This document shows positions 25,301 to 39,714 of a DNA stretch of 64,000 nt, piece after piece (position 1 is the stretch's first letter; each line of letters starts with the position of its first letter). The notes beneath the pieces were generated by a model that saw nothing but the letters and a program-made list of their open reading frames with translations, was not told where the DNA came from and ran no database searches. The DNA comes from a phage: sequence record PZ171035.1; one strand, given 5' to 3'. The position numbers and the translations under genes were made by a program.

Positions 25301-25462
25301 GTGGCTCAGAAGCTGCTGCTATTTGTGGTAGTGTTCGTAATTCTGATGCTATTGCTTATCAGGATTCTGGACGTGTCGGCTCCATACATAGCATTTATCA
25401 TCACTGTGCTTATACTTTGGAAACTCAGTGATAAAAACGGTGGTGACAAGCCGCCAGAGTAA
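25301..25462 (+). CDS. candidate small hydrophobic membrane peptide (below ORF-track length cut-off)
   Basis: GTG 25301 (or ATG 25346) to TAA 25460-25462; predicted ...LLLFVVVFVILMLLLIRILDVSAPYIAFIITVLILWKLSDKNGGDKPPE; followed 12 nt later by a 14-bp perfect hairpin. Confidence 0.3.
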   Translation: MAQKLLLFVVVFVILMLLLIRILDVSAPYIAFIITVLILWKLSDKNGGDKPPE

Positions 25463-25473
25463 CAACAACAACC

Positions 25474-25513
25474 GAACCAGTGGACTTTATTACTCCCCGA
25501 AGTCCACTGGTTC
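25474..25513 (+). repeat. 14-bp perfect inverted repeat (hairpin), 12-nt loop
   Basis: GAACCAGTGGACTT-TATTACTCCCCG-AAGTCCACTGGTTC. Confidence 0.8.
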
Positions 25514-26557
25514 AATCTAAACTAAGCGGAAAAGTTAGCTTTTTCTTGGGTGTAGAACCTGTTGAAGGAAACAAAGAATTTCACATTGAATAGTTAATAT
25601 CGTGAAGGGTTCTGTTAGAATCCTTTGAGATAGGAACTCCTATCATAACTATTCTTAACTTAATCATTGCCGTATGGCACTGACGCTAGGGGTGGCCCCC
25701 CCATCCGTCAGGTAGACTATTTTAAGAATGGATTATCACAGCAAATGTAAAGCAACATTCGGGTTAATCAATGGCCTCTCCCTATAGGGGCCATTTCTGA
25801 ATCTTAGGCTATATCCCAAAGGTTAGTATCTTTGGGATAAGGCTTCAGATCCCTTATCAACTAACGCTCGTGTTGAGCATTTTAATCACATAAGCCCCTA
25901 TATGGGCTGGGTTAAATGTCGGATAGCAAAGCTACCTACAGCATCGAATTGTTAGGTCTTACATGTAATATAGGGTATAAAGGGAGGACTCGTCCCCTCC
26001 CTCCTATTATGACATCCTATCAATGAGTACATTAAGCTAACGTGCGGAGGTTTACACTGTAGCCGGTGTAGGTGGAGAAGACGGCAGGGTAGCTACCTGT
26101 GCTTAGTGTACTCTTTGATAGTTTTCGTAAGCGATTATGCGGTTTTTTAGAAACGAACCAATAACATAAATGCAAACGATGATGTTGTTCTGATGGCGGC
26201 GTAATAGCCTGTAAGTCAGCAAGGTCTTCCGACTCCTTGTAAGCAAATTCGGCGCAGTGGCCCGCTGTGATTAATAATGGGCACACAACAGGTAAGAGCA
26301 TTTAGGCTACTGAGAAATCATCCGAGGCAATCAGACCTATCTTCTGTTAAGTGCTCTTTCCGTTGTGGTGAATGCGCAGGCTGATGCGCAGTGGGACGTG
26401 GCTGACTCACGAGGATGGCTCAAGCGAATAAGCAAGCTCGACGCCGCCGAATAAGCGCCTTATGCCGGAGATCAGCACCGGCCACCACAACAAGTCCAGA
26501 CGATATCTGAGTGACTATAAAAACAGATGGAGCCAGGTGGAATCCCTGGCAACTAAT

Positions 26558-26623
26558 TCCGGTGTAGGTACTAGTGTCGTGCACGGCATGAGCATTCTGG
26601 TTCGAGTCCAGACGCCGGAACCA
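26558..26623 (+). ncRNA. tRNA-like element (T-arm plus acceptor minihelix with encoded CCA)
   Basis: Acceptor TCCGGTG/CGCCGGA, T-arm TCTGG-TTCGAGT-CCAGA, discriminator A, CCA; only 63 nt before CCA and no canonical D/anticodon arms found. Confidence 0.3.
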
Positions 26624-26625
26624 AT

Positions 26626-26749
26626 TACCAGTTGCACGAGATGGCTTGACATGTTCAAGTTTGGACTAAGTGTGACACCGCTAGATTGGAGGGCTGCTGC
26701 GGTAAGCTATAGACTCCAACCGGAGGTTCGAATCCTTCACTGGTAACCA
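26626..26749 (+). ncRNA. tRNA-like element with ~48-nt extra internal sequence
   Basis: Perfect 7-bp acceptor TACCAGT/ACTGGTA, T-arm GGAGG-TTCGAAT-CCTTC, discriminator A, CCA; 121 nt between acceptor strands. Confidence 0.3.
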
Positions 26750-27332
26750 ATTCAAAGTAGCACTCGTTTATACTTCCCGGTATTCAAAGACACATTCTTG
26801 TGTGAGTGTTACTCTGAATTGTAAGAATTATGGGGGTAAGTCGTAAATACGACAGCGTAAGTACCAGATGAAACCTCTGGACGCCCCTACCATATTTGAG
26901 ATGTAACAGTTAAATCCGTACCCGGAAGTGCTATTCTAGATACGCTGCCAATGTGGAGACGGTAAGGCTGTACAGGACTCGGACTCCCACCTCAAACCAA
27001 AGTCGCCAGATACTTATGGCAAACGGGTAGTAACGAACTAGTCATTCGTCAAACGCCCACCCTATTATGAGTCAGCAAGAACGCCTTCACTTAAACTTAA
27101 ACAAAAAAGCTTAACGCAATAATTATGTAGGGGTATGTAAGGATTGCGAAGAAGGAGCCAGTTAAAGTCTGGCATGACTCACCTAATTGAGGCTGTACTT
27201 ATGTTCTACAGTAGGTGCACAACACTGGGCTGCTACACCCAGAGGTACAGCCTCACCCTATTATGGGTAGCCTATACTAGTTATAGGGCAGATAATCTGT
27301 GGCAGTGTAAGGCTGCACTACCCTTTCATTAA

Positions 27333-27408
27333 TACCCGGTAGGCTTAGTGGTAAAGCCCCACTAGTAAACCAACTAGGACGCAGGTTCGAATCCTGTCCG
27401 GGTAGCCA
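27333..27408 (+). tRNA. tRNA (anticodon not resolved)
   Basis: Acceptor TACCCGG/CCGGGTA, D-arm GGCT-TAGTGGTAA-AGCC, T-arm GCAGG-TTCGAAT-CCTGT, discriminator G plus CCA; anticodon arm pairs only with a shifted, non-canonical register. Confidence 0.55.
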
Positions 27409-27413
27409 TTTAT

Positions 27414-27498
27414 GCCCACTTAGCTCAGTGGTAGAGCGCAGGAAAGCTTCGAGAGAACAAGGTGTCTGTGGTCACTGGTTCAAATCCAGTAGTGGGTA
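27414..27498 (+). tRNA. tRNA, 85 nt, probably long-variable-arm type (anticodon not resolved)
   Basis: Acceptor GCCCACT/AGTGGGT, D-arm GCTC-AGTGGTA-GAGC, T-arm ACTGG-TTCAAAT-CCAGT; no CCA encoded; no canonical anticodon stem found by eye. Confidence 0.5.
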
Positions 27499-27813
27499 CT
27501 TATTTGCTGCAATATTCCCATAGGGAATGGTGTCGTATACGCCACCTAGTTTCTGGTGAAACTCCAGATGCAGCAATCCATTCAGCAGTAACATAGTCCT
27601 GATTGCATTGCACTCTAAAGACAACACTGGTAAGACAGTCCAGTGGCTGCTATTGTATTGATATTCCCCTCGACGGGAATTTCGCTAGTGAAGGTAACAC
27701 TTAAAAATCCAAACCCACGTCTTACTGCTATCGGGCTATCAACCCACAGTCGCTTAACACACTAGTGGTAGTAGTTTGACGACCTAGCCTCGTTAGCTGC
27801 GTTAAAGCTACTA

Positions 27814-27850
27814 AGTCCCCTAGAGCCGCCCCTCTAGGGGACTTTTTTAT
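27814..27850 (+). terminator. rho-independent terminator (12-bp perfect stem)
   Basis: AGTCCCCTAGAG-CCGCCC-CTCTAGGGGACT followed by T6. Confidence 0.75.
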
Positions 27851-27877
27851 TTGAGTATTAATAACCGGATAATCAAT

Positions 27878-28036
27878 ATGATTGACCTAATCTCAACCCC
27901 GTATGCCTATGAGGTAACGGACAACCGAGGGCATAAGTACTTGGTATTTGTAGGTAGCGTAGCCTATAACAACGCAGTCATGTTTAAGTACAAACTCAAA
28001 CCACTCTATGAGGCTAATAATGGCAACAGTAAGTAA
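27878..28036 (+). CDS. hypothetical small protein
   Basis: ATG 27878; ORF-track start at 27851 is TTG inside the terminator tail. Confidence 0.35.
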   Translation: MIDLISTPYAYEVTDNRGHKYLVFVGSVAYNNAVMFKYKLKPLYEANNGNSK

Positions 28037-29315: not shown

Positions 29316-29345
29316 AAGCCCCTCATTAGAGGGGCTTTTTCATTT
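29316..29345. terminator. bidirectional rho-independent terminator between convergent operons
   Basis: AAGCCCCTC-ATTA-GAGGGGCTT with T-rich tracts on both strands; sits between + strand stop (29310) and vRNAP stop (29344). Confidence 0.7.
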
Positions 29346-32300
29346 AGTTAGTAAGATTGAGCCACGGGTTCAGGGTATGAGCACGTAAGCCTTGACCGAA
29401 ACCGAAGGAGTAACCAAGATTGCCCTGTGCAGCAATACTAAAGATGTTGTCCTGAATAGGCAGGCCAACGTTACCAAACATGGTAGGGGTTGGGGCCAAC
29501 ATAGCCATAGCAGCATGAACTGGGTTATTACGAATCATGGACACTGCAACTTTTGCAGAACGAATCTTAAAGTTGTAGAACCACATCAGACCAACGCTTT
29601 CCATATACCCACGGAAACGACCAGGCAGACGGTCATAGTTAATGAACTCTTCCGTTACACGTCCCAGTGCTTCTTCGCGAGTCTTACCTTTACGCTGAGT
29701 TAGTTCATCATAGATGATTGCTTTAGCAATAAAGTCAGAGTACTCAACCGTCTTCTGGATACTCTGGAACAAAGCAGTATCCTTAGTGATAAGTGCATAA
29801 CGACCTGCGTTACGTACAGACTTAGGCAGCTTATCGGCTAGCTTATCCATATATTCGTGAAGTTTACCTTCAGTAATCAGAATGTCATCACGCCCAATAC
29901 CAGCATCTGCAATTGAAGAGAACTCACCAGCTTCCAATAGAGGCCAGATACTCAAACGCTTATGGCTATCCGTAATGGACTGAATCTCAGCCTTAAGTTT
30001 ACGAATCTGGTTCGGGTTAGTAGCTGCACGTAATTCTGCTTCTGCATCTACCTGACGCAGGCGAGATTTCAGGTACTGGTTAATCTCAGCAGTCTTCTGT
30101 GGAATGCTCTTAGCAATGTTCTTAACCGGTACACCACGAGCAACCATCTGGTAAAGGTTAGCCAGGAAGTTAACAGCAGGTACAACTACTGACTTAACCA
30201 CAATCAGAGTCTTAGCTTCTTTAACTAAGTTTTGAACCAGGTTCTCTCCACCCATTACATATTTATAAGCACGGTTACCGAAGACACCCAACATAGCTTT
30301 CTTGAAGGTATCCAGTGTTTCTGGGGACCAACGAGAATTACCAGACCAGGCATCACCAACGGAAGCTGCACGATAACCTAAGGCATCATTAAGCATGTCA
30401 CGACGTACCCACAACTCACCTGGACCAAACAGACTTTCTGCTTTCTGACGAGTTTCACTATTCATCAGCTTAAGTGCATCGGCAGTTACTGGGTCCAGTT
30501 TAGAACCAAGAAGGTTAACGTACTGGGACTTATTAGAAGCAGACATCTTAATGTCGTTCTCATACATGCTATGCAGGTTCTCAATTAGCATATCGTTGAA
30601 ACGCTGAGCCTTAGCCTCTTCTACCTGACGACCACGCCATACACCGATTGCACGAGCAAGATGGTTCTCACCTTCAATGTGCTTCAGCATGTTAGGGTCA
30701 ATAGATTGCTCGTAAGCAACTACATTACCATTAGCATCATATACAGGCAGCAGAGGTTCATTACCACGTTCACCACGAGCAAGTGCTTTAGTGATACGGT
30801 CTACAGAAGGCTTGTCAGTGATACGACCCGCTACCATGGTTCCCATCGTAAAGCCTGTACCAAGGTCTACACCACCAGCAGTATTTCGAACGTTCTGTAA
30901 GATACCCTGTGAGAATGGGGCCTGTGCCTGTACTGGTGCGAAGTAGTAGCTACGTGCTGGACCACGGTTAGCAGAGCTACCTTGATAAGTACCCAGACGT
31001 ACATAGGACTTCTCAATCAAATCACCAAACTGGCTATCTTCAGCAACAATCAGATTAACACCCTGTTTAGTCTCACTAGGGATATGCCCTTTGTACTGGT
31101 TCAGGGTTGCACGCATATCAGATTTGGCTTTAGCCATTTCATCTTTACGCTGACCAACCAGGTAAGAGGTGGCAAAGTCCATCCCATCAACTTCTGTCTG
31201 AGCCAGTGAAGATAACATCTCACGGTCGGACTTGTTCATTGCTTCCAGTGCATACAGGGTAATCAGTTTATCCAGTTGAGCTACATCTACAGTAGAGCGT
31301 GCAGCCTGACGTTCACCCAGCATACGGGAGATTGCAGTAGCATTACGCAGCAGGTTTTTACCGACAGTACCATTAATCATGTACTGAGCCAGTTGCTTAG
31401 ATTTACGGTTAATCAGAGGCCAGTTACGACCAGCTTGTTTCTGCAAATCTGCTTCCAGCTTATTCACTTCACGGTCAACAATCTTCTGGTCAGTCAGTAA
31501 GTCACGGATTTCAGCCAGTGACATAGTGTCACGCAGGACAGCTAAATCTGTTTTACCCATACCAGTATGCATTACTTTCCACTCATCATTAGTCAGCTTA
31601 CGGCTGAACTTAGATGCGATAGTAGTAGGCAGATGTTCACGGAACTGCTGACGGTCTGCCTGCACCTGTGCACGTACTGCTTTAATCAAATCGTATACAG
31701 AAGCATTGCTCTTAGTACGACCGGTTAAGTCATTAACCAGGTCATGGAAAGGTTGCCATACCTTACCCTGGTTCATTGCAGCCATAACACCTTCAGCTAC
31801 GATTGCACCATTCTTCTCTGTAGCAATAGCAGCTACCAGTTGTGCAGCATGAGCAGCACCTTTAACCAATGGATTATTGGTATTGGCTGCAACTTCACGA
31901 GCACCTTCCAAAGCACGGGTAGATAGTACATCAATAGAATCCACCAGATACTGGTTAGCACGGTCAATAGCATTACCAGTAGGAGTAGCAACGGAATCAT
32001 AGAAGGATTCTGCATTAAGACTGGTCTGCATAATCGTCTGAGCCAGTGCATCCATACCTTCCTGTACGTTAGTAGCTTTAGTATCACCTGCTACACGAGC
32101 ATTCAGACTAGCCATTGCAGCAGTACCAATGTTAGTCAGCATTGCATCAACGGTATTACCTGATTTCTTATCTGCTTTCATGACAGGAATGTCAGCCAGT
32201 ACTTTACGTACTTCTTCACTTACCATTGCCAGACCAACAAAGGTAGGCAGTAAAGAAGATCGACCTTGTGCATCAAACTCAATGTTGTTAGCACCCATGA

Positions 32301-35300
32301 TGGTATCGAACTTCTGCTGTGCATAATAACGATCAGCAGGGTTAGTACTATCTGGGTCAGCCATAAATGCTTCGACGGTCAGATTCTTAGTAACATGCGT
32401 GTAGTATTCCTGTGCACGAGCCATAGCAGCAGGGTTAACAGCAGCCTCGGTAGCCAGTGCAGCAACAATATTGGTAAAGAGACGCTGTTCCTGCATATTC
32501 ATGGTGAAGCCATGAGCCTGAACATCACGAGTTACTTTAGTTGCATTTACTACTGCATCAGAGAACTTACCTTTGCGAATTACTTGCTGTACTGGTTCTG
32601 AACCAATGTAGTTAGTAATTAGCTTATCAAAGGTTTTCCCTAGCTCTTCCAGACGAGTATTTTCACCATACGCTTTGTTATGGAACAGAGTAGTATCTTT
32701 GGCTACAGCAGCAGTAGGAGCTTGCCCACGCATTACTACAGCAGAGTTAAACAGTAAGCCAGAGAACATATCTTCTGCATTAGCAGGAGCTTTCTTACGT
32801 CCAAATACCAGACGTTTGATTGCTTCATATACAGCCTGAACCATAGTTTTAAGTGCAGTGGTTTTCTTCTGCTTACTAATCAGTTCTCGGTTGGTTAAAC
32901 CCCAAGCCATGTACTCGTTCAGTGCAGCAGCTTTAGCCATTGCTGGTTCAATAAAGCCATTGGATAGGTGACCATTAATGGTATTCAGTGCATCAGCATA
33001 TGCTTCTCGTACTGCCGGAGATTCATCCCTAACATCCAGAGCACGGAACTGATTCATCAGGTCTTCGATGTTCTGGACTGCTTCATTAGGAGTGCCTTCA
33101 TAGTGAGCCAGTACAGATTCAAAAGTAGAAGCATGTACCAATTCATGAACCAGAGTCTCTAAGGAAGGGGTAACTAAGTAGATGGTTTTATCTTCAAAGT
33201 TAGTCCAGCCGTATGCATTACCAGCTTCAGCAGCTTCAATATCTTCCGGTGCTGGGCGAGTAATGTTCTTCTCAATAGCATAGGCATCCAATTGAGCAGG
33301 TGTACCGTAAACAACTTTATAGTCTTTAGCAGCAAGGGATTTCTGTATTTCTTTCAATACTTCTTGCTGTTCAGGAGACATCTCTTTAGCCAGTTTAGTA
33401 ATGGCAGTGTTAGACAGCAGACGTACACCAGACTTCAGTACACGACCAACCTGTTCCATCGCCGGTACTTCTTCCACTGGTTCTGCTTTAGTAGCACGTA
33501 CTGCTTCACGACGCTTATTTAATTCAGCATCAAACAGTTCGTTCAGCTTAGCTACTTGCTGGTCTACAGTAAGACCTTCCAGAGAGATTTTACCGTTGTT
33601 CACATAAGGAGCACCTACGGCAGCCATCTGGTCAACAGTGACTTGTACCTGGTCCATTACCTTGTGACGAATATCTACACCCAGAGCAATGTTACGCAGG
33701 TTACGTTCAATCTGCTCAGCACCGACACGTAACAGGTCATCAGTAGCACCCTCACGTTGGTCATACTCCAGAGCAGACTTAGCGATAGCCTGTTTGGTTT
33801 CATCAGACAGTTTACTGAAGTCTACGTTCTTCATGAACTTAGCGTAGGAGTCATAAACATTCTTGATAGGGTTACCCTGCCAGGAAGTATATACAGCCTC
33901 ATTAGCTTTGCGACTTGCATCAGTGATGTCATTGATACCAATGTTCATACCATCAAAGATTTTCAGGGTATTCTTCGGAGCACCTTTCATAGTAGAAAGT
34001 GTCTGCATCATCATGCCATCACCAGTACCGATGGTCATAAATGGAATACCTGCAACACCTGCCTGTGAAGGAGCATAAATGCTCATTGGCACACGCATAC
34101 GGTCATCTAAGTTAGTAGCCAGTACTTGGTTAGCAACATCAGTATTCTCACTACCAGCAATGTAGAAAGTCTGTGAACCAGTCTCAATCATTGGAGCCAG
34201 TGAAGATAATGATTCCTGGATTTCATTCAGTTCTTTCTGCGTTAAGAAATCACCTTTCTTCCAGGTTGGGTCTTTTTCTTTTTCTGCCAGCTTAGCCTGT
34301 ACTGCTTGCTGGAACATATCCTGCAATACCAGAGATTGAATCTGGGTAGCCTTCTGCAAGTTCTCGGTAGAGTGCATCAGACCTTCACCAACAGTATTAC
34401 GGATACCAGTACGCATTGGTTCAACGAACAGGTGGAGCATGTTCTCTTGTAAGTTCTTCAGGGCATTACCGGATACGGTAAATTTCTGGGGGTCTAACTT
34501 ACCAGTCAGAGCACCATCTACTTGCTGAATAGACAACTCACCTTTACGCATAACTGGAACATTACCAGTCAGTGCTTCCATAGAAGTAAGGAAAGTATCC
34601 AACATAGCCTGAGCATCAGCTTCAGACGCAGCCTCCTTACCAAACATTGCCATAGCTGGGGAAATGCTAGGGTCAGCAGCTCGTGCTTGCAGAACGTCAC
34701 TGAAGCGTTCGTAGATGGTATCAGTAATTGCACTGACCATCTTGCCAGCAATACCACGAGCACCAGAACCATAGATGGTAATGGTCAGTGGGTTTTTAGC
34801 AATACCACGTTTCAGGTCCAGAGTACCGTCTTCATTCAGGTTAAAGTCTTTAATGAACAAGTCCATTAACTTCTGGAGATGATTCATCTGGCTCATAACT
34901 GGAACGTTGTTACGGTAAGTAGTACGTAACTCATTCAGTGCTTGTTGAAGACCATTGGTAGATGCTTCATACAAGTCAACATTATCGTCGATAGAACAAT
35001 GTTCGTTCATCGTTTTACCAGCACGACCAAAGAACAAACCACCTTTGGCAGTGTTCTTAATCCAGTCTGGAGTGAACTTACCACCAGTCATTAATACCAT
35101 TGCGTTGATTGGGCCGTTGGTTACACCATCAGCTTCAACGTACAGTGGAGTAGTAAAATTAGCACGGTCATCACTGTTCAGGTAACGGGCATATTCCATC
35201 AGAGCCATGAGAGCTACGAAGGATTTATCACTACCCAGAGAGGTCTTCAGGATGTCTACTGCATCTGTCGGTAAGTGACCAGACTTATCAAACTCAACCA

Positions 35301-38300
35301 TCATATCAACAGCAGGTTTCAGTTTACCTTCCAGAGCTTTAGTTAACTCTTCAGACATAACTTCACGGGACATTTTATGTACCTTGATGCCTAATGCCTG
35401 AGCCAGACCTAACTGGAAGTCAGAGAACGCTTGGCTGTTTTCATTACTCAAGTCGATAGTAGAGAAGGTTGGTAGGATTGCTTCACGAACCAGCTTACTG
35501 GATTGTGGGTTGTTCTTACCAAGCATCTGCATACGACCTACACGGGTCATGTTATAACCGTAGTGGATAGGTGTATCCAGACCATTCTCTTGTTCTCGTA
35601 TCTGATTAATTACACCGAACAGAGAATCATATGCCATAGACACGGACAGGTTTTTACCTTCCAAAGATTTAGCAGTGTTCGCGTTCAGTAATTCTGGATT
35701 AAGAGTACCAGCACCCATCAGTTCCAGAATGTTGTCACGCCCCAATGCTTCATAGAAGTTAACCATTGGCATATGTACACGGAACTCGGTAGCCTGTTCA
35801 GCTTTCAGTGCAGCTTTCTGTTCAGGGGTATTCTTAACAGCAGGGTTACGCAACTGAGTCTGAGCCACAGAAGGAATGTCATCACCAAAGTACATTTTCT
35901 CTTCTGGTTCTAAGAGGACAGCTTCCTCAATAGCAGTAGGGAATTTATTAATGGCATCATTGTCATCCAACTTCTCAATGGTATACAGACCAACAGTCTT
36001 ATTGGAGTCTGGGTCAATCTCAGACACATCCAACATAGACTCTTTAACTTCACCCATCTCAATGAGAGAAGACAGAATCTCTGTAGCCATTGCCATTGGG
36101 ATACCTTTGGTATAACCCAGCGGTGCATTAGGATTACGATTCAAACCCCAGTAGGATTCAATCTTCTGAGCCAGTGAGTTAGTAGCTTCAACCAGGGTCT
36201 GGGCATTCTCGAACTCAGCCAGAATACCTTCTGGTAACAGAGATGCTTCTACGCCTGTAATAGCAGCTACGTCTTTCATATCTTTAATGGCAGCATTCTG
36301 TGTAGTAGTCAGTCGCCATTGCAAACCAGCAAGCACAGCAGTCTCTAACAACTGGTCGTTGAACTTAAAGGTATCCCCATCTTGTTCAACTATATTCAGC
36401 AGTTTGCCACCTACCCAACGGTTAGCTTCAGTACCTTCTGCAAAACGTTTACCAACGTTCTTATTAGCAAGGAACTTAGCCAGACGTTCAGACAAAGTAG
36501 TCTTCAGAGTTTCACCAAAGTCCATTAAGTCCTGATAACGCTTAATCACATCACTAGTGAGAGCGTTATTTTCTTTTTGAGTGAATGCCTCAAAGCGAGC
36601 AGCAGAAGACAGTGCTTGCTTAATATCAGTCAAAGGAGATTCTGAACCAATGGTACGGGACTTAGGTTCTTCCGGTAAGGTAAATGCTTTCAGGAACTGG
36701 TTCGGTGTCTTTTCATTGTTATAGACAGGGAACACTGTTTCCATTTCTGTTTTGGTTTCAGCTACTTCCTGGATGGTATCCTCATTCTTGAGAATAGCAT
36801 CTACTGTTTCAGGCTTAGTAGTAGAGACTTCTTCTGTTTTTGGACTAGTCTCCTTAGTAGGAGCAGTCTTATTTTCTACCACAGGTTTAGCTTTAGGCTG
36901 TACAGTAGTAGTGTCCTCTTGCACTGGTGCAGGAGATTCATCAACCTGATTCACTGGTTCATTAGTCTGTTGAGACTGAGTGGCATCAAGACCACCTTGA
37001 CGGAACTCTTTAACTACCTGGGCAGCAGGCTTGTTCAGACGTGAATCCAACGAGGTAACTTTCACATGAGAAACATTAAGCTCCGGGTAAGCCGTAGCAA
37101 GTGCATTAGCAATATCAGCTACGGTTTTGGCTTCCAGTCCTACTTGCTGGGCAAACTTAACAGACTTGGTATCGTAAGGATTGACACCGAGGCCAGTACG
37201 ACTACGTACCCATTCACGGGAAGGCGAGAGAGCCTGATAATGAACAGACTTATTCTTATCCGCATTCCCCGAAATCAGATGCTCATTCAACGCTCCGACC
37301 TTATTCTGCATGTGCTGGGCGAACTTCATAAAGTCGCTCAGATAAGCGGAGGCCAAATCGAAGTTACCAGAGTTATACGCAGAACGAATGCGTTTCGCAT
37401 GTTGCAACGCAGAGTACTGTCCTTCATTAGAACGAGACTCGTCGGTTTTAATCTGTTTACTAACAATGTCTTGAGGACGTAAGCCTAGTTCTTCTGCTTT
37501 AGCGTCGAACTCACGTGCACCCTGTAACAAGGCAGCAGCAGATTGCAGGGCAGCACGTTGACGATTACCCAATGTAATCTTACCTTCACTTGCATGTTTC
37601 AGAACCATGTTCACTGAATCCGCATCCAGTACTTCTGGAGATACATCAGCAGCCATAGCAATATTGTTTGCTTGGGCTTGGTTAGCTTCTTCAGTAGCTT
37701 TCAGCTTACCTGCTTCAGCCTGTTCCTGAATCATGGAATGGATAGCACGGAATGCACGAAGTACTTTCGGGGTATTCTGTACGTTAGCCATCAGGCCGGA
37801 GAATTGGTCTACGATTGCAGCAGCAGGAGAACCCTGTTCAAGATTAGCCAGAGCACCTGGGTCACGGTTAATGAAGCTATCCATAGACATGATGTTGTCA
37901 TACATCTGGATTGCAGCTTCCATTTGAACGTTAGGGTCTTCGGCAGTATTAACCAGGTCAGCCATCTTCTGAATAGCTTCAACACGGTTAGTGGAACCAG
38001 AAACAGCTTCACGGATTGCCGGGTTAGCTTGTTCCAATTCTACCGGGTCAAACTTCATTGCCTGAGTTAAGTCAGCAGCATACTGGGTAGCAGCAGCTTT
38101 CTCTTCTGGAGTGATGTCCATTGCATCCACTGCTTCTTGTACAGTTGCCTGTGCTTGTTCTGCCTGAGCAGCAGCTTCCTGTGCAGCAGCATTAACCGTA
38201 GCATCAGCTACAGGGGATGCTTGTTCATTACGCTTAGCAACTTCTTCACCACGTTGAATCAGGATGTTAGTAAGAGGGGATGCAGCTTTTGCTAATGTTT

Positions 38301-39714
38301 TGCCAACCAGAGAAGCACCAGCCATGGTAGTACGAAGAGCAGGGCCAGCAGAAGCACCAACTGCTTTAACAGTTGTACCAGGAGCTTGAGCAACCCCAGC
38401 ACTACCGAATCCATAAAGTGCACCCAGACCTGCTTGCTCACCAACCCCTTTGAGGGTGTCACGGGATGCATCAACGTTTTCTTTGATTGCAGTATTCTGT
38501 GCGAACTGACCAAAGCCGGATTGAATACCTTCTTCGACTGTTTCACGTAGCATATTAGAACCAGCACCTGCCAGTGAACCTACCTTAAGTGGGTTAAGTT
38601 CAAAGCGAGATACCAGTGGACCGGTAGCAGCAGCAACTGGAGCAGTTAAGCCAGCAGCAATGATACCTGTTTCAGATGCAGTCTGACGACGTGCTTCATC
38701 AGGAGATAAACCATCAGCAATATGTTGTTGGTAAACAGGAGACTTACTTGCCAATTCTTGATGGGACATCTTCATGATTTCAGAAGCAGTCTGTTGGTAT
38801 GCACCACCAGCTTCCATACCACCGATTGCAATAGCAGGTGCAGCAACACGACCGGCAGACAATGCAACCTGTGCAGGACGTGAACCTAACCCAGCAGCTA
38901 AGGTAATACCCTTAACAGCTTTATCACCACCTACCATTACTTTACCAAGTGCAGATACACCACGAATAAGAGGACCACCAGTAAAGAGAGAACCAACACC
39001 TTCACTCAGTCCGTCAGAGGCAGCCATACCATTATCAAGTGTGTTAGCAACAGAATCGAAAGCGTCACGACCAATACGAGACAGGGAGGCAACCAAATCG
39101 CTGTCCCCATTTTTGATATCTTGTTCATAAAGTTTCTGGTTCTTTTGAGCAGAAATCTGGTTCTGATTCTGAACAACTTTACGGGTAGCATTCAGTGCAT
39201 CAGACTGTAGATTGTGTACACCTTCATTCAACCAATCCATCCCGGAAGCAATGGATGCCCCGGCATTATCATTGACCAGACCTGTGCCAAGAGCAGCAAT
39301 GCCCCCAAGGGTATTAGCAACACCAAGACCAACACCAGAAAGAGTATCGCCAAATGCTTCTGCGTTAGTACGCTGTTTAGATAAGTCCTGACGTACAACA
39401 TCAGCAGCATTAGCTCGGCTATTAATAATCTGTAGACCTTGTTCATTACCGTACTTATTAATGATTTCTAAAGGGGAGGCTTGAGTGAAATCTGCCTGAA
39501 GTGAACCTGGTTCGAATGCACCGATTCCAAGATTACCTACTCGTCCGGTCTGGAGATTGTAAGCATTCTCTGGGGTTAATTGGAAAGGGCTTTGCCCTTG
39601 TGCAGCTTGCTTCTGAGAGGTTGCAGTAGAGACATCGACTTGCTTAGCATTAGTGATGCTGTCTGCGAAACCTGCCAGACGGTCAAATGTTGACATAGCA
39701 TGTTTCCTGTTCAA
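29344..39714 (-). CDS. virion-encapsidated giant RNA polymerase (N4 vRNAP-like)
   Basis: Single 3456-aa ORF at the distal end of the late operon; size and position are the hallmark of N4-like phages (N4 vRNAP is ~3500 aa). Confidence 0.8.
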   Translation of the reverse strand: MNRKHAMSTFDRLAGFADSITNAKQVDVSTATSQKQAAQGQSPFQLTPENAYNLQTGRVGNLGIGAFEPGSLQADFTQASPLEIINKYGNEQGLQIINSRANAADVVRQDLSKQRTNAEAFGDTLSGVGLGVANTLGGIAALGTGLVNDNAGASIASGMDWLNEGVHNLQSDALNATRKVVQNQNQISAQKNQKLYEQDIKNGDSDLVASLSRIGRDAFDSVANTLDNGMAASDGLSEGVGSLFTGGPLIRGVSALGKVMVGGDKAVKGITLAAGLGSRPAQVALSAGRVAAPAIAIGGMEAGGAYQQTASEIMKMSHQELASKSPVYQQHIADGLSPDEARRQTASETGIIAAGLTAPVAAATGPLVSRFELNPLKVGSLAGAGSNMLRETVEEGIQSGFGQFAQNTAIKENVDASRDTLKGVGEQAGLGALYGFGSAGVAQAPGTTVKAVGASAGPALRTTMAGASLVGKTLAKAASPLTNILIQRGEEVAKRNEQASPVADATVNAAAQEAAAQAEQAQATVQEAVDAMDITPEEKAAATQYAADLTQAMKFDPVELEQANPAIREAVSGSTNRVEAIQKMADLVNTAEDPNVQMEAAIQMYDNIMSMDSFINRDPGALANLEQGSPAAAIVDQFSGLMANVQNTPKVLRAFRAIHSMIQEQAEAGKLKATEEANQAQANNIAMAADVSPEVLDADSVNMVLKHASEGKITLGNRQRAALQSAAALLQGAREFDAKAEELGLRPQDIVSKQIKTDESRSNEGQYSALQHAKRIRSAYNSGNFDLASAYLSDFMKFAQHMQNKVGALNEHLISGNADKNKSVHYQALSPSREWVRSRTGLGVNPYDTKSVKFAQQVGLEAKTVADIANALATAYPELNVSHVKVTSLDSRLNKPAAQVVKEFRQGGLDATQSQQTNEPVNQVDESPAPVQEDTTTVQPKAKPVVENKTAPTKETSPKTEEVSTTKPETVDAILKNEDTIQEVAETKTEMETVFPVYNNEKTPNQFLKAFTLPEEPKSRTIGSESPLTDIKQALSSAARFEAFTQKENNALTSDVIKRYQDLMDFGETLKTTLSERLAKFLANKNVGKRFAEGTEANRWVGGKLLNIVEQDGDTFKFNDQLLETAVLAGLQWRLTTTQNAAIKDMKDVAAITGVEASLLPEGILAEFENAQTLVEATNSLAQKIESYWGLNRNPNAPLGYTKGIPMAMATEILSSLIEMGEVKESMLDVSEIDPDSNKTVGLYTIEKLDDNDAINKFPTAIEEAVLLEPEEKMYFGDDIPSVAQTQLRNPAVKNTPEQKAALKAEQATEFRVHMPMVNFYEALGRDNILELMGAGTLNPELLNANTAKSLEGKNLSVSMAYDSLFGVINQIREQENGLDTPIHYGYNMTRVGRMQMLGKNNPQSSKLVREAILPTFSTIDLSNENSQAFSDFQLGLAQALGIKVHKMSREVMSEELTKALEGKLKPAVDMMVEFDKSGHLPTDAVDILKTSLGSDKSFVALMALMEYARYLNSDDRANFTTPLYVEADGVTNGPINAMVLMTGGKFTPDWIKNTAKGGLFFGRAGKTMNEHCSIDDNVDLYEASTNGLQQALNELRTTYRNNVPVMSQMNHLQKLMDLFIKDFNLNEDGTLDLKRGIAKNPLTITIYGSGARGIAGKMVSAITDTIYERFSDVLQARAADPSISPAMAMFGKEAASEADAQAMLDTFLTSMEALTGNVPVMRKGELSIQQVDGALTGKLDPQKFTVSGNALKNLQENMLHLFVEPMRTGIRNTVGEGLMHSTENLQKATQIQSLVLQDMFQQAVQAKLAEKEKDPTWKKGDFLTQKELNEIQESLSSLAPMIETGSQTFYIAGSENTDVANQVLATNLDDRMRVPMSIYAPSQAGVAGIPFMTIGTGDGMMMQTLSTMKGAPKNTLKIFDGMNIGINDITDASRKANEAVYTSWQGNPIKNVYDSYAKFMKNVDFSKLSDETKQAIAKSALEYDQREGATDDLLRVGAEQIERNLRNIALGVDIRHKVMDQVQVTVDQMAAVGAPYVNNGKISLEGLTVDQQVAKLNELFDAELNKRREAVRATKAEPVEEVPAMEQVGRVLKSGVRLLSNTAITKLAKEMSPEQQEVLKEIQKSLAAKDYKVVYGTPAQLDAYAIEKNITRPAPEDIEAAEAGNAYGWTNFEDKTIYLVTPSLETLVHELVHASTFESVLAHYEGTPNEAVQNIEDLMNQFRALDVRDESPAVREAYADALNTINGHLSNGFIEPAMAKAAALNEYMAWGLTNRELISKQKKTTALKTMVQAVYEAIKRLVFGRKKAPANAEDMFSGLLFNSAVVMRGQAPTAAVAKDTTLFHNKAYGENTRLEELGKTFDKLITNYIGSEPVQQVIRKGKFSDAVVNATKVTRDVQAHGFTMNMQEQRLFTNIVAALATEAAVNPAAMARAQEYYTHVTKNLTVEAFMADPDSTNPADRYYAQQKFDTIMGANNIEFDAQGRSSLLPTFVGLAMVSEEVRKVLADIPVMKADKKSGNTVDAMLTNIGTAAMASLNARVAGDTKATNVQEGMDALAQTIMQTSLNAESFYDSVATPTGNAIDRANQYLVDSIDVLSTRALEGAREVAANTNNPLVKGAAHAAQLVAAIATEKNGAIVAEGVMAAMNQGKVWQPFHDLVNDLTGRTKSNASVYDLIKAVRAQVQADRQQFREHLPTTIASKFSRKLTNDEWKVMHTGMGKTDLAVLRDTMSLAEIRDLLTDQKIVDREVNKLEADLQKQAGRNWPLINRKSKQLAQYMINGTVGKNLLRNATAISRMLGERQAARSTVDVAQLDKLITLYALEAMNKSDREMLSSLAQTEVDGMDFATSYLVGQRKDEMAKAKSDMRATLNQYKGHIPSETKQGVNLIVAEDSQFGDLIEKSYVRLGTYQGSSANRGPARSYYFAPVQAQAPFSQGILQNVRNTAGGVDLGTGFTMGTMVAGRITDKPSVDRITKALARGERGNEPLLPVYDANGNVVAYEQSIDPNMLKHIEGENHLARAIGVWRGRQVEEAKAQRFNDMLIENLHSMYENDIKMSASNKSQYVNLLGSKLDPVTADALKLMNSETRQKAESLFGPGELWVRRDMLNDALGYRAASVGDAWSGNSRWSPETLDTFKKAMLGVFGNRAYKYVMGGENLVQNLVKEAKTLIVVKSVVVPAVNFLANLYQMVARGVPVKNIAKSIPQKTAEINQYLKSRLRQVDAEAELRAATNPNQIRKLKAEIQSITDSHKRLSIWPLLEAGEFSSIADAGIGRDDILITEGKLHEYMDKLADKLPKSVRNAGRYALITKDTALFQSIQKTVEYSDFIAKAIIYDELTQRKGKTREEALGRVTEEFINYDRLPGRFRGYMESVGLMWFYNFKIRSAKVAVSMIRNNPVHAAMAMLAPTPTMFGNVGLPIQDNIFSIAAQGNLGYSFGFGQGLRAHTLNPWLNLTN

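Follow-up and report, generated by a model that had tools for sequence, protein, structure and literature searches.

The tRNA clusters of phages are usually read as patches for codon usage or as replacements for tRNAs cut by defence systems. Within the tRNA cluster of phage T4, two genes stand as 'small, stable RNA', rnaC (species 1, 139 nt) and rnaD (species 2, 119 nt). Both products are larger than a tRNA, and to our knowledge their function was never established. Here we examine a 64,000-nt stretch of phage DNA (PZ171035.1; 'the window' below means this whole stretch), which carries two tandem tRNA-like elements that we call E1 and E2 (Table 1). Comparison of their sequences assigns E1 and E2 to new, well-defined RNA families of the same known but unexplained kind, with rnaC and rnaD as the closest analogues, and both are probably mimics of tRNA rather than adaptors.

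Like rnaC and rnaD, E1 and E2 lie in a phage tRNA cluster, head to tail and a few nucleotides from tRNA genes, have tRNA-like termini and would not serve as adaptors. A canonical T arm (CCGGG-TTCGAAT-CCCGG) and, after it, an acceptor-like strand form the 3' end of rnaC; the last bases of rnaD are CACCA. The likeness does not extend to sequence. We detected no similarity between the two pairs, and blastn searches with E1 and E2 against 50,697 phage records returned N4-like phages and phage 05F01 only, without any T4-like phage. Unlike the T4 RNAs, both elements close with a clean acceptor stem of 7 bp and encode their ACCA, and neither the core of E2 nor the loop of E1 has a T4 counterpart.

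Other systems share parts of this design. Mycobacteriophage DS6A carries a gene that is little more than the tRNA-like domain of transfer-messenger RNA (tmRNA) (PMC4131195; PMC11915505). As Mao et al. (2009) are summarized in PMC4131195, a similar molecule, reduced to the tRNA-like domain, is a strong inhibitor of tmRNA regardless of whether it is chargeable, possibly because it titrates SmpB. E1 resembles such a domain in its acceptor stem, its lack of a D stem, the short helix at the place of the anticodon arm, its T arm, its CCA and its length of ~65 nt, and it occurs in a phage beside tmRNA-related sequence. It differs in that the third acceptor pair is C3-G70 in E1 and E2 (U3-A70 in E2 of PBM-3) rather than G3:U70, and in that the conserved D-loop sequence of tmRNA was not seen in E1 by eye. 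The tmRNA-family models of Rfam gave no match on 26540-26765 at E-values up to 10.

tRNAs without a D arm, such as metazoan mitochondrial tRNA-Ser(AGY), share with E1 the order of acceptor stem, single-stranded connector, one stem-loop and T arm. E1, however, comes from a bacterial virus and keeps a fully canonical T loop, and its hairpin loop, 6 nt long in the window, is palindromic, invariant and non-canonical at positions 32 and 37. The small tRNA-like mascRNA (~61 nt, from MALAT1) is located immediately 3' of the functional end of a longer structured RNA, and RNase P cleavage makes both ends at once. E2 is reminiscent of it where, in relatives, it follows the CCA-ended hairpin of a tmRNA-like RNA by 2-4 nt, but mascRNA is eukaryotic and nuclear and receives its CCA after transcription, whereas the CCA of E2 is encoded and its non-tRNA core is strongly constrained in sequence. 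Finally, engineered tRNA scaffolds for E. coli keep the acceptor and T arms for processing and protection and exchange the anticodon arm for an insert. This is the layout of E2 and of a further family, E3, described below; the scaffold is artificial, and we know of no described natural phage equivalent.

Two conserved tRNA-like RNA families

E1 and E2 each contain a complete tRNA top half, in which the acceptor stem stacks on the T arm and is followed by A73 and an encoded CCA. A sequence-only reading of this locus had described two tandem CCA-ended tRNA-like elements of 63 and 121 nt (without CCA), and its coordinates proved exact to the base. The acceptor stems (of 7 bp, with one U.G pair in E1), canonical T arms and encoded CCA that it reported are present in both elements, as are the 2-nt separation after the E1 CCA and the ~48 nt by which E2 (121 nt plus CCA) exceeds the length of a tRNA. 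A composite motif, in which a 5-bp T stem with a TTCRANT loop directly abuts a 7-bp acceptor stem and NCCA follows, occurs three times in the window (E1, E2 and 27333-27408) and not once in 100 shuffles; a 7-bp closure with NCCA alone is not rare, with eight in 2.4 kb. Because the G.U pairs of E1 (6:67, 17:33 and 20:30) and E2 (13:46, 67:83 and 98:112) become C.A mismatches on the other strand, the predicted product of both is + strand RNA.

Table 1. Features of the E1-E2 locus and of the surrounding RNA cluster, in positions of the window
Feature	Positions	Strand	Description
E1, D-arm-less tRNA-like RNA gene	26558-26623	+	66 nt with CCA, 63 nt without
E1 acceptor	26558-26564 TCCGGTG / 26613-26619 CGCCGGA	+	7 bp including one U.G
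E1 connector	26565-26573	+	TAGGTACTA
E1 hairpin	26574-26589	+	5 bp; invariant GTGCAC loop at 26579-26584
E1 second connector	26590-26595	+	
E1 T arm	26596-26612	+	TCTGG-TTCGAGT-CCAGA
E1 3' end	A73 at 26620; CCA at 26621-26623	+	
Spacer, E1 CCA to first base of E2	26624-26625	+	AT, 2 nt
E2, oversize tRNA-like RNA gene	26626-26749	+	124 nt with CCA, 121 nt without; ~48 nt longer than a tRNA
E2 acceptor	26626-26632 TACCAGT / 26739-26745 ACTGGTA	+	7 Watson-Crick bp
E2 proposed D stem	26635-26638 / 26671-26674	+	preceded by U8; A14 and G18-G19 in tRNA register
E2 D-loop hairpin insert	26645-26659	+	15 nt
E2 linker	26675-26685	+	11 nt, at the place of nucleotide 26
E2 long pseudo-anticodon arm	26686-26719	+	6 + 4 bp, 5-nt bulge, 9-nt loop
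E2 T arm	26722-26738	+	GGAGG-TTCGAAT-CCTTC
E2 3' end	A73 at 26746; CCA at 26747-26749	+	
Leader	26488-26557	+	hairpin GCCAGG-TGGAATC-CCTGGC just 5' of E1
tmRNA-like RNA, mRNA-like domain	26025-26260	+	~350 nt 5' of E1
Long helix of the tag RNA	26025-26037 / 26101-26113	+	apex differs between phages; pseudoknot-like segment next
Tag frame ANDDVVLMAA	26172-26201	+	stops at 26202-26207
tRNA-like gene	27333-27408	+	6-nt anticodon loop AAACCA, G73, CCA; sole ARAGORN call in the window ('tRNA-???')
Strong intrinsic terminator	27813-27844	+	13-bp stem, then T run; closes the + strand RNA cluster

For E1, the sequence-only reading was right that a D arm and a canonical anticodon arm are lacking. E1 is not a bare minihelix, since a conserved, covarying 5-bp hairpin takes the place of an anticodon arm. 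Across 11 distinct sequences, a three-helix model of E1 has 98.9% of its cells paired, compared with 22-47% when the partners are slid by 1-3 columns. Six pairs show two-sided change: two lie in the T stem and the other four in the central hairpin, which has five pairs in all. Nine sequences have U.G at pair 6:67, whereas cp20 and 05F01 have C.A. Because C.A with a protonated A can take the geometry of U.G, this suggests that the wobble shape of the pair may matter. All E1 members have a connector in place of the D arm; the sole conceivable D-stem pairing, GGUA/UGUC, needs a strand of the covarying hairpin and fails in cp20. No variation is seen in acceptor pairs 1-5, at A73, in the connector UAGGUAC, or in the T and GUGCAC loops of E1; the GUGCAC loop and the connector stay invariant across three virus groups. 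The loop has 6 nt (GUGCAC) in six of the 11 distinct sequences, including those of the window, N4 and most Gamaleyaviruses, and 7 nt (GUGCACA) in the remaining five (KP8, VLCpiP4a, IME11, cp20 and 05F01). GUGCAC is a self-complementary palindrome, and a loop-loop dimer of E1 formed through it is conceivable.

The 5' part of E2 can be read in tRNA register, with U8, a proposed D stem of C10-G13 with U46-G49, A14, and G18-G19. Among nine distinct sequences, 99.7% of the positions modeled as paired are paired, with five two-sided changes (three in the acceptor stem, one in the insert hairpin and one in the T stem). RNAalifold independently recovers the insert hairpin, the long arm and the T arm. 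Positions 41-96 contain a single variable site, G67/A67, at which pairing with U83 is kept, and the lower 6 bp of the long arm are invariant, which makes covariation uninformative there. The core of E2, ~60 nt long, is thus conserved beyond the needs of pairing, which points to sequence-specific recognition. A pseudoknot between ACCGC in the linker and GCGGU in the loop, all bases of which are invariant, is possible in our model; an equivalent is not clearly kept in the E3 family.

The stretch 25400-27900 is 85-91% identical, in mosaic fashion, to genomes of Gamaleyavirus (G7C-like, N4-like Schitoviridae of E. coli), the genus to which we assign the source phage. E1 and E2 are housed in an RNA cluster of ~2.3 kb without a conserved open reading frame (ORF), from ~25520 to 27850. 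Because relatives carry tRNA genes in the corresponding slot (tRNA-Asn, Ser, Thr and Pro in N4 relatives; tRNA-Asn, Asp, Pro, Ser, Gln and Tyr in KP8-like, VLCpiP4a and cp20 phages), we identify the locus as the tRNA cluster of an N4-like coliphage. Its composition across relatives is mosaic, with frequent gain and loss.

E1 is present in N4 (Enquatrovirus), where it is unannotated, and in Gamaleyavirus and Kaypoctavirus, as well as in cp20 (Efbeekayvirus, another Schitoviridae genus) and 05F01 (a 147-kb myovirus of the Stephanstirmvirinae). In cp20 and 05F01 it sits inside an ordinary tRNA array, with spacers of 6 nt to tRNA-Tyr on its 5' side and to the following tRNA on its 3' side, and there the leader that otherwise accompanies E1 is absent. 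Other annotators have labeled E1 'tRNA-Undet' (SPSP, AL25 and Jura) or 'tRNA-OTHER' (KP8). The 43 phage records that contain E2 all belong to Gamaleyavirus or KP8-like phages and match it at 91.6-100% identity, and in every locus read E2 stands 2-4 nt after another NCCA-ended element. The two elements are inherited separately. N4 has E1 alone, without E2; F22 and several metagenome contigs have E2 without E1; and KP8 carries them in the order E2, E1, 142 nt apart, compared with E1, E2 in the window. In VTCCBPA_322, a 128-nt tRNA-like element, E3, fills the E1 slot and is preceded by the same leader.

Covariance models built on the two elements separate their members sharply from everything else: the E1 model, R1, scores members at 88-99 bits and all else at no more than 34 bits, and the E2 model, R2, scores members at 153-160 bits and all else at no more than 37 bits. 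Leader and E1 together (26493-26626) are 94.8% identical to N4, compared with 68-70% for the ssb, gp46 and gp47 genes; 26488-26626 is 87.9-92.9% identical to KP8 and VLCpiP4a, whose flanking genes reach 68-72%; and E2 shares 88.8% identity with KP8, for which coding DNA reaches 70-72%. We therefore regard E1 and E2 as two independent conserved RNA families with compensatory changes in their stems.

We also looked for more distant members. A scan of bacterial genomes with the E1 pattern, which bears on an origin in the host or mimicry of a host RNA, returned scattered unrelated taxa, none scoring like E1 with R1. A scan for a wider E1 family with GTGCAC...GGTTCGAGTCC gave ordinary tRNAs and a few short tRNA-like elements, at no more than 34 bits. 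Very short tRNA-like elements occur in unrelated viral contigs (L095, L108, L094 with 55 nt, and L130 at 19-80 with 62 nt); these lack a D arm and consist of an acceptor stem, a single small hairpin with GUGCAC and a T arm. Phage tRNA arrays may commonly include such miniature tRNA-like genes. The E3 family comprises elements of 127-137 nt ending in ACCA (L010 1937-2064, L205 401-529, L206 537-663 and L207 515-651), found in VTCCBPA_322, Jgk1, Pectobacterium phage Possum (Cbunavirus) and Erwinia phage Gungnir39, and thus in E. coli phages among others. Its members have an acceptor stem, a short D stem with a variable insert of 42-59 nt, a linker of ~11 nt, an arm with a 6-bp stem (GUCAGG/CCUGAY) and an 8-nt loop (GUUCAYGG), a T arm and ACCA. 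Because E3 shares the plan of E2, the oversize layout appears to recur in phages of enterobacteria.

Proposed mimicry, processing and tagging

From this anatomy we infer the following function. E1 and E2 would be co-transcribed with the rest of the cluster, and RNase P would cut at each 5' end; bacterial RNase P accepts acceptor/T minihelices with RCCA at their 3' end as substrates. Because the spacer measures only 2 nt, one cut would make both the 5' end of E2 and a 2-nt trailer on E1, which RNase T or RNase PH could trim to the CCA. The products would be stable RNAs of 66 and 124 nt. In these RNAs the tRNA top half would serve as a scaffold for maturation and stability, and the conserved bottom half, which is not an anticodon arm, would be the working surface that binds a tRNA-handling protein, a host factor or an anti-phage factor. 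Because they are without an anticodon, E1 and E2 would be unable to decode. Rather than being adaptors in translation, they would act as ligand, decoy or sponge. The surface that remains to them could be recognized by the CCA-adding enzyme, TrmA, TruB, EF-Tu (if they are charged), synthetases that do not depend on the anticodon, RelA, and toxins that either modify the CCA end or recognize the acceptor stem, of which toxSAS/FaRel2 (PMC11559606) and MenT (PMC10435456) are published examples.

We give this reading, a tRNA-derived scaffold joined to a conserved surface that engages a protein, a probability of about 0.5. Among the options raised by the sequence-only reading were tRNA-like decoys. 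A non-decoding tRNA-like RNA fits the anatomy; the decoy function itself is a conjecture built on it.

A number of results weigh against mimicry. In the literature searched we found nothing on the expression, processing or charging of these loci, and publications on tRNA-like RNAs of N4-like phages, phage tRNA-like decoys and phage tmRNA likewise held nothing on them. Within the window there is no antisense match of at least 14 nt to E1 or E2, predicted duplexes of E1 and E2 with the tmRNA-like RNA fall within the shuffled distribution (fractions 0.46 and 0.26), and blastn found no match to either element in 5,426 complete E. coli genomes. A duplex between E1 and E2 is borderline, at a fraction of 0.05 of shuffled. 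The folding energies of the single sequences are unremarkable (z = -1.7 and -0.5). Within E2, RNAalifold favors a slightly different pairing at positions 6-12, and the proposed D stem and the linker-loop pseudoknot are invariant and hence give no covariation signal. Both elements are accessory. Because E1 is missing from several Gamaleyaviruses and E2 from N4, neither is essential, to judge by these genomes. The high identity could also stem in part from recent horizontal transfer rather than constraint.

The most serious competitor, which we consider unlikely, holds that E1 and E2 are only punctuation for processing. They would attract RNase P and 3' exonucleases and so give neighboring RNAs, for example the tmRNA-like RNA, their ends, and the released tRNA-like pieces would be by-products, as mascRNA is for MALAT1. 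This would explain why E2 always lies 2-4 nt after an NCCA-ended element, which in F22, KP8 and several metagenome loci is the 7-bp ACCA hairpin that ends the tmRNA-like RNA, and a minihelix with RCCA would suffice for RNase P. The top half would be enough for such a handle, yet the non-tRNA core is the most invariant part of E2. Nor would a handle call for the invariance of the E1 loop and connector across three virus groups, and in cp20 and 05F01 E1 lies between normal tRNAs that need no extra handle.

A second competitor starts from the tmRNA-like RNA. Its tag frame reads CAUAAAU followed by GCA AAC GAU GAU GUU GUU CUG AUG GCG GCG UAA UAG, and an H-type pseudoknot after the stops can be drawn by eye with different sequences in the window and in KP8. 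The variants ANDDVVLMAA, ANDDVILMAA, ANEEAYLMVA and ANNETYLMVA always keep ten codons and a stop. Asp is exchanged for Glu through changes of the third codon position, and GCG, GCA, GCC and GCU all serve as last Ala codons, a pattern that fits selection on the reading frame. The Rfam model tmRNA_permuted scores 31.2 bits on this RNA (cutoff 47), with the tRNA-like part wholly deleted in the alignment, and ARAGORN needs a relaxed threshold to detect its resume and tag sequence. No tRNA-like domain of the tmRNA type was recognized in cis by Rfam or ARAGORN, and none of the acceptor-type closures in 25450-27900 has G3:U70. The tag segment matches 214 phage records, mostly N4-like phages of enterobacteria, with phages of Escherichia, Klebsiella, Salmonella, Shigella, Cronobacter, Enterobacter, Aeromonas and Vibrio represented. 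Among the matches listed (60 of the 214), most have no annotated feature there and a few have an unrelated or hypothetical protein; those inspected have no RNA annotation. The tag sequence is absent from the literature searched, which makes no mention of tmRNA in N4-like phages. In KP8, F22 and others, the tag RNA ends in a 7-bp hairpin with ACCA, and E2 follows after 2-4 nt.

With these elements in hand, E1, E2 and E3 could be seen as acceptor halves that work in trans with the tag RNA, forming a split, non-alanine system of trans-translation or tagging in which the CCA-ended RNAs are charged independently of an anticodon and without the G3:U70 rule for alanine. A conserved frame of ten codons, with synonymous differences in its last Ala codons, lies ~350 nt upstream of E1; the tag RNA has no recognizable tRNA-like domain of its own; E2 directly abuts its end in many phages; E1 shares the general build of the tRNA-like domain of tmRNA, in which the D stem is absent, a short helix stands for the anticodon arm, and a T arm and CCA complete the RNA; and the DS6A gene is little more than such a domain (PMC4131195). 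We nevertheless consider this idea improbable. The cluster has no G3:U70 in any acceptor stem, the tmRNA D-loop sequence was not seen in E1, no tmRNA model of Rfam matches E1 or E2, and the pairing between the RNAs is no better than shuffled. Co-occurrence is loose as well: the tag RNA is found in 214 records and E2 in 43, VTCCBPA_322 has E2 without the tag, and N4 has E1 with no tag found. If the idea were true, the phage would redirect or pre-empt the host's ribosome rescue and proteolytic tagging.

An 11-nt repeat, CCGGTGTAGGT, at 26063 had at first been read as a link from E1 to the apex of the long helix of the tag RNA. Six 11-mer repeats were found, about the number expected by chance according to our estimate, which undercuts that link, and we rejected it. 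T arms also cap long closed helices in two other phages. In N4 (L004 2590-2690), the T arm is TTAGG-TTCGAAT-CCTAA, and no tag frame was found there. In Salmonella phage FSL SP-058 (L049 ~1410-1500), it is TTAGG-TTCAACT-CCTAA, and the helix that it caps is the long one of the tmRNA-like RNA.

Unlikely alternatives: decoding, decay and coding capacity

A tRNA register overlooked by the sequence-only reading would have undone its claim. ARAGORN (default, with introns, ps90 and ps80) and Rfam (curated and permissive) gave no credible call of an ordinary tRNA, so the claim stands and we rejected this candidate. Over the whole window, ARAGORN in its default mode calls neither element, and neither reaches the curated cutoff of RF00005 (29 bits). 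A permissive Rfam search of 26540-26765 finds only the T arm of E2, at 12.1 bits, and nothing in E1. At ps90, ARAGORN proposes a 'tRNA-Pro' at 26569-26749 with an 82-nt 'intron' that spans both elements; because E1 and E2 are separable, being inherited separately and reordered in KP8, this chimera is not real. At ps80 it proposes a 'tmRNA' made of E1 and E2, one of four overlapping calls of which none appears at default, and the supposed tag AGTNYQLHEMA reads through the CCA end of E1 and the acceptor strand of E2. The mitochondrial mode alone calls E1, as a D-arm-less 'mtRNA-???' with a 2-nt 'anticodon'. In the window, a canonical anticodon arm (5-bp stem, 7-nt loop, U33 and a purine at 37) is missing from both E1 and E2, as is a D arm from E1.

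The sequence-only reading had also offered intron-containing, split and degenerate tRNAs. An intron finds no support, since the intron option of ARAGORN gives nothing at default and the inserts of 15-22 nt are too small for a self-splicing intron; Rfam shows no group I intron at E1 or E2. Split tRNAs seem less likely, because E1 and E2 each form a closed acceptor stem by themselves and are inherited separately. As for degeneration, E1 and E2 could be decaying pseudogenes, the drifting remains of a functional array. The cluster of this phage appears to lack a standard decoding tRNA, relatives hold tRNAs for Asn, Ser, Thr, Pro, Gln, Asp and Tyr, and gain and loss are frequent in so mosaic a cluster. 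We hold decay to be very improbable, because pairing in every stem is maintained by compensatory changes, the core of E2 does not vary, and identity lies far above that of adjacent protein genes. The architecture of E1 is constant in Enquatrovirus, Gamaleyavirus, Kaypoctavirus, Efbeekayvirus and the Stephanstirmvirinae myovirus, and the score gaps of R1 and R2 are sharp, without intermediates.

We assign a similarly slight chance to the view that both are odd tRNAs that decode, E1 as a D-arm-less reader of Cys codons (GCA within GUGCACA) and E2 with inserts that are removed or tolerated. Where the E1 loop has 7 nt, that is in KP8, VLCpiP4a, IME11, cp20 and 05F01, U falls at 33 and GCA at 34-36; the mitochondrial mode of ARAGORN calls E1; and in cp20 and 05F01 E1 stands in line with real tRNAs. 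Against this, the loop has only 6 nt in the window, N4 and most Gamaleyaviruses, and G at 32 and C at 37 are not the canonical bases. The discriminator of E1 is A73, whereas E. coli CysRS needs U73, and 05F01 already has a normal tRNA-Cys(GCA). E2 has a loop of 9 nt, and we know of no bacterial system that splices inserts of 15-22 nt.

Finally, that the locus acts as protein-coding or DNA-level sequence instead of RNA can be practically dismissed: an ATG-initiated ORF of 94 codons (26462-26746, +) does cover both elements, and 'hypothetical protein' is annotated here in some GenBank records, but in KKP 3715, L017 and L024 the 5' part of this ORF is shifted out of frame or interrupted by stops. 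N4 and KP8, in which the elements stand apart or in another order, contain nothing equivalent. Substitutions fall on both partners of stem pairs rather than at synonymous sites, and the G.U pairs turn into C.A mismatches on the opposite strand. We regard this ORF as spurious, the chance product of a stop-free stretch. The GenBank records in which a 'hypothetical protein' is annotated across the region are those of nithesis, UE-M3, UE-S5a and Bas96.

The surrounding RNA cluster and its meaning

In annotated relatives, the cluster is flanked by ssb, RuvC-like and gp47 genes on one side and gp48/gp49-like genes on the other. Farther downstream in the window, an ORF of 3,456 codons (29344-39714, -) is the counterpart of the virion RNA polymerase gene. 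At curated cutoffs, Rfam calls only 27333-27405 and 27414-27498 in the window. The gene at 27333-27408 has otherwise canonical D and T arms, and ARAGORN gives it a 2-nt anticodon; the odd AAACCA loop is kept in nithesis, PBM-3 and KKP 3715, and relatives conserve the gene with the same 2-nt call. In KP8, a diverged homologue lies directly before the tmRNA-like RNA, and its acceptor sequence is that of the terminal hairpin of that RNA. At 27414-27498 lies an 85-nt tRNA-like gene whose D arm and anticodon region are unlike those of relatives. These have a 74-79-nt 'tRNA-Ile(AAU)' at the site, in place of whose anticodon stem-loop the window has ~24 nt, and the window copy is without CCA. Because of this altered anticodon region and missing CCA, the cluster appears to be without a standard decoding tRNA.

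Several further stretches of the cluster may be of interest. A 77-nt CCA-ended element of cloverleaf shape (27504-27580; TTGCTGC...GCAGCAA, T, CCA), the fourth such element of the cluster, has very small loops and a non-canonical T-like loop, TGAAACT; the stretch that overlaps it is 85-89% conserved in N4, KP8 and VLCpiP4a. On the 3' side of E2, the non-coding stretch 26897-26989 is 91.5% identical to N4 (L004 2876-2969), far above the coding background, and is probably a further structured RNA of the cluster. The sequence CCTATTATG has three copies in the window (26003, 27061 and 27257), all on the + strand and all within the cluster, each preceded by a C-rich run and one of them just 5' of the tmRNA-like RNA; KP8 has a similar CCTTATTATG. 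These copies could be promoters or processing signals of the cluster.

In current annotations, the genes of E1 and E2 are overlooked, named 'tRNA-Undet' or 'tRNA-OTHER', or covered by spurious ORFs. In their layout, E2 and E3 look like a natural counterpart of the engineered tRNA scaffold. The tag RNA may prove the more important lead, with E1 and E2 as its most frequent immediate neighbors. In place of codon-usage patches or replacement tRNAs, the cluster keeps at least three conserved RNAs that retain only those parts of a tRNA read by processing and CCA-end enzymes, toxins, EF-Tu and some synthetases. If E1 and E2 are mimics, a well-studied phage family would use RNA to manipulate the tRNA biology of its host or tRNA-targeting defences, and it would offer tractable relatives for the unexplained rnaC and rnaD of T4.

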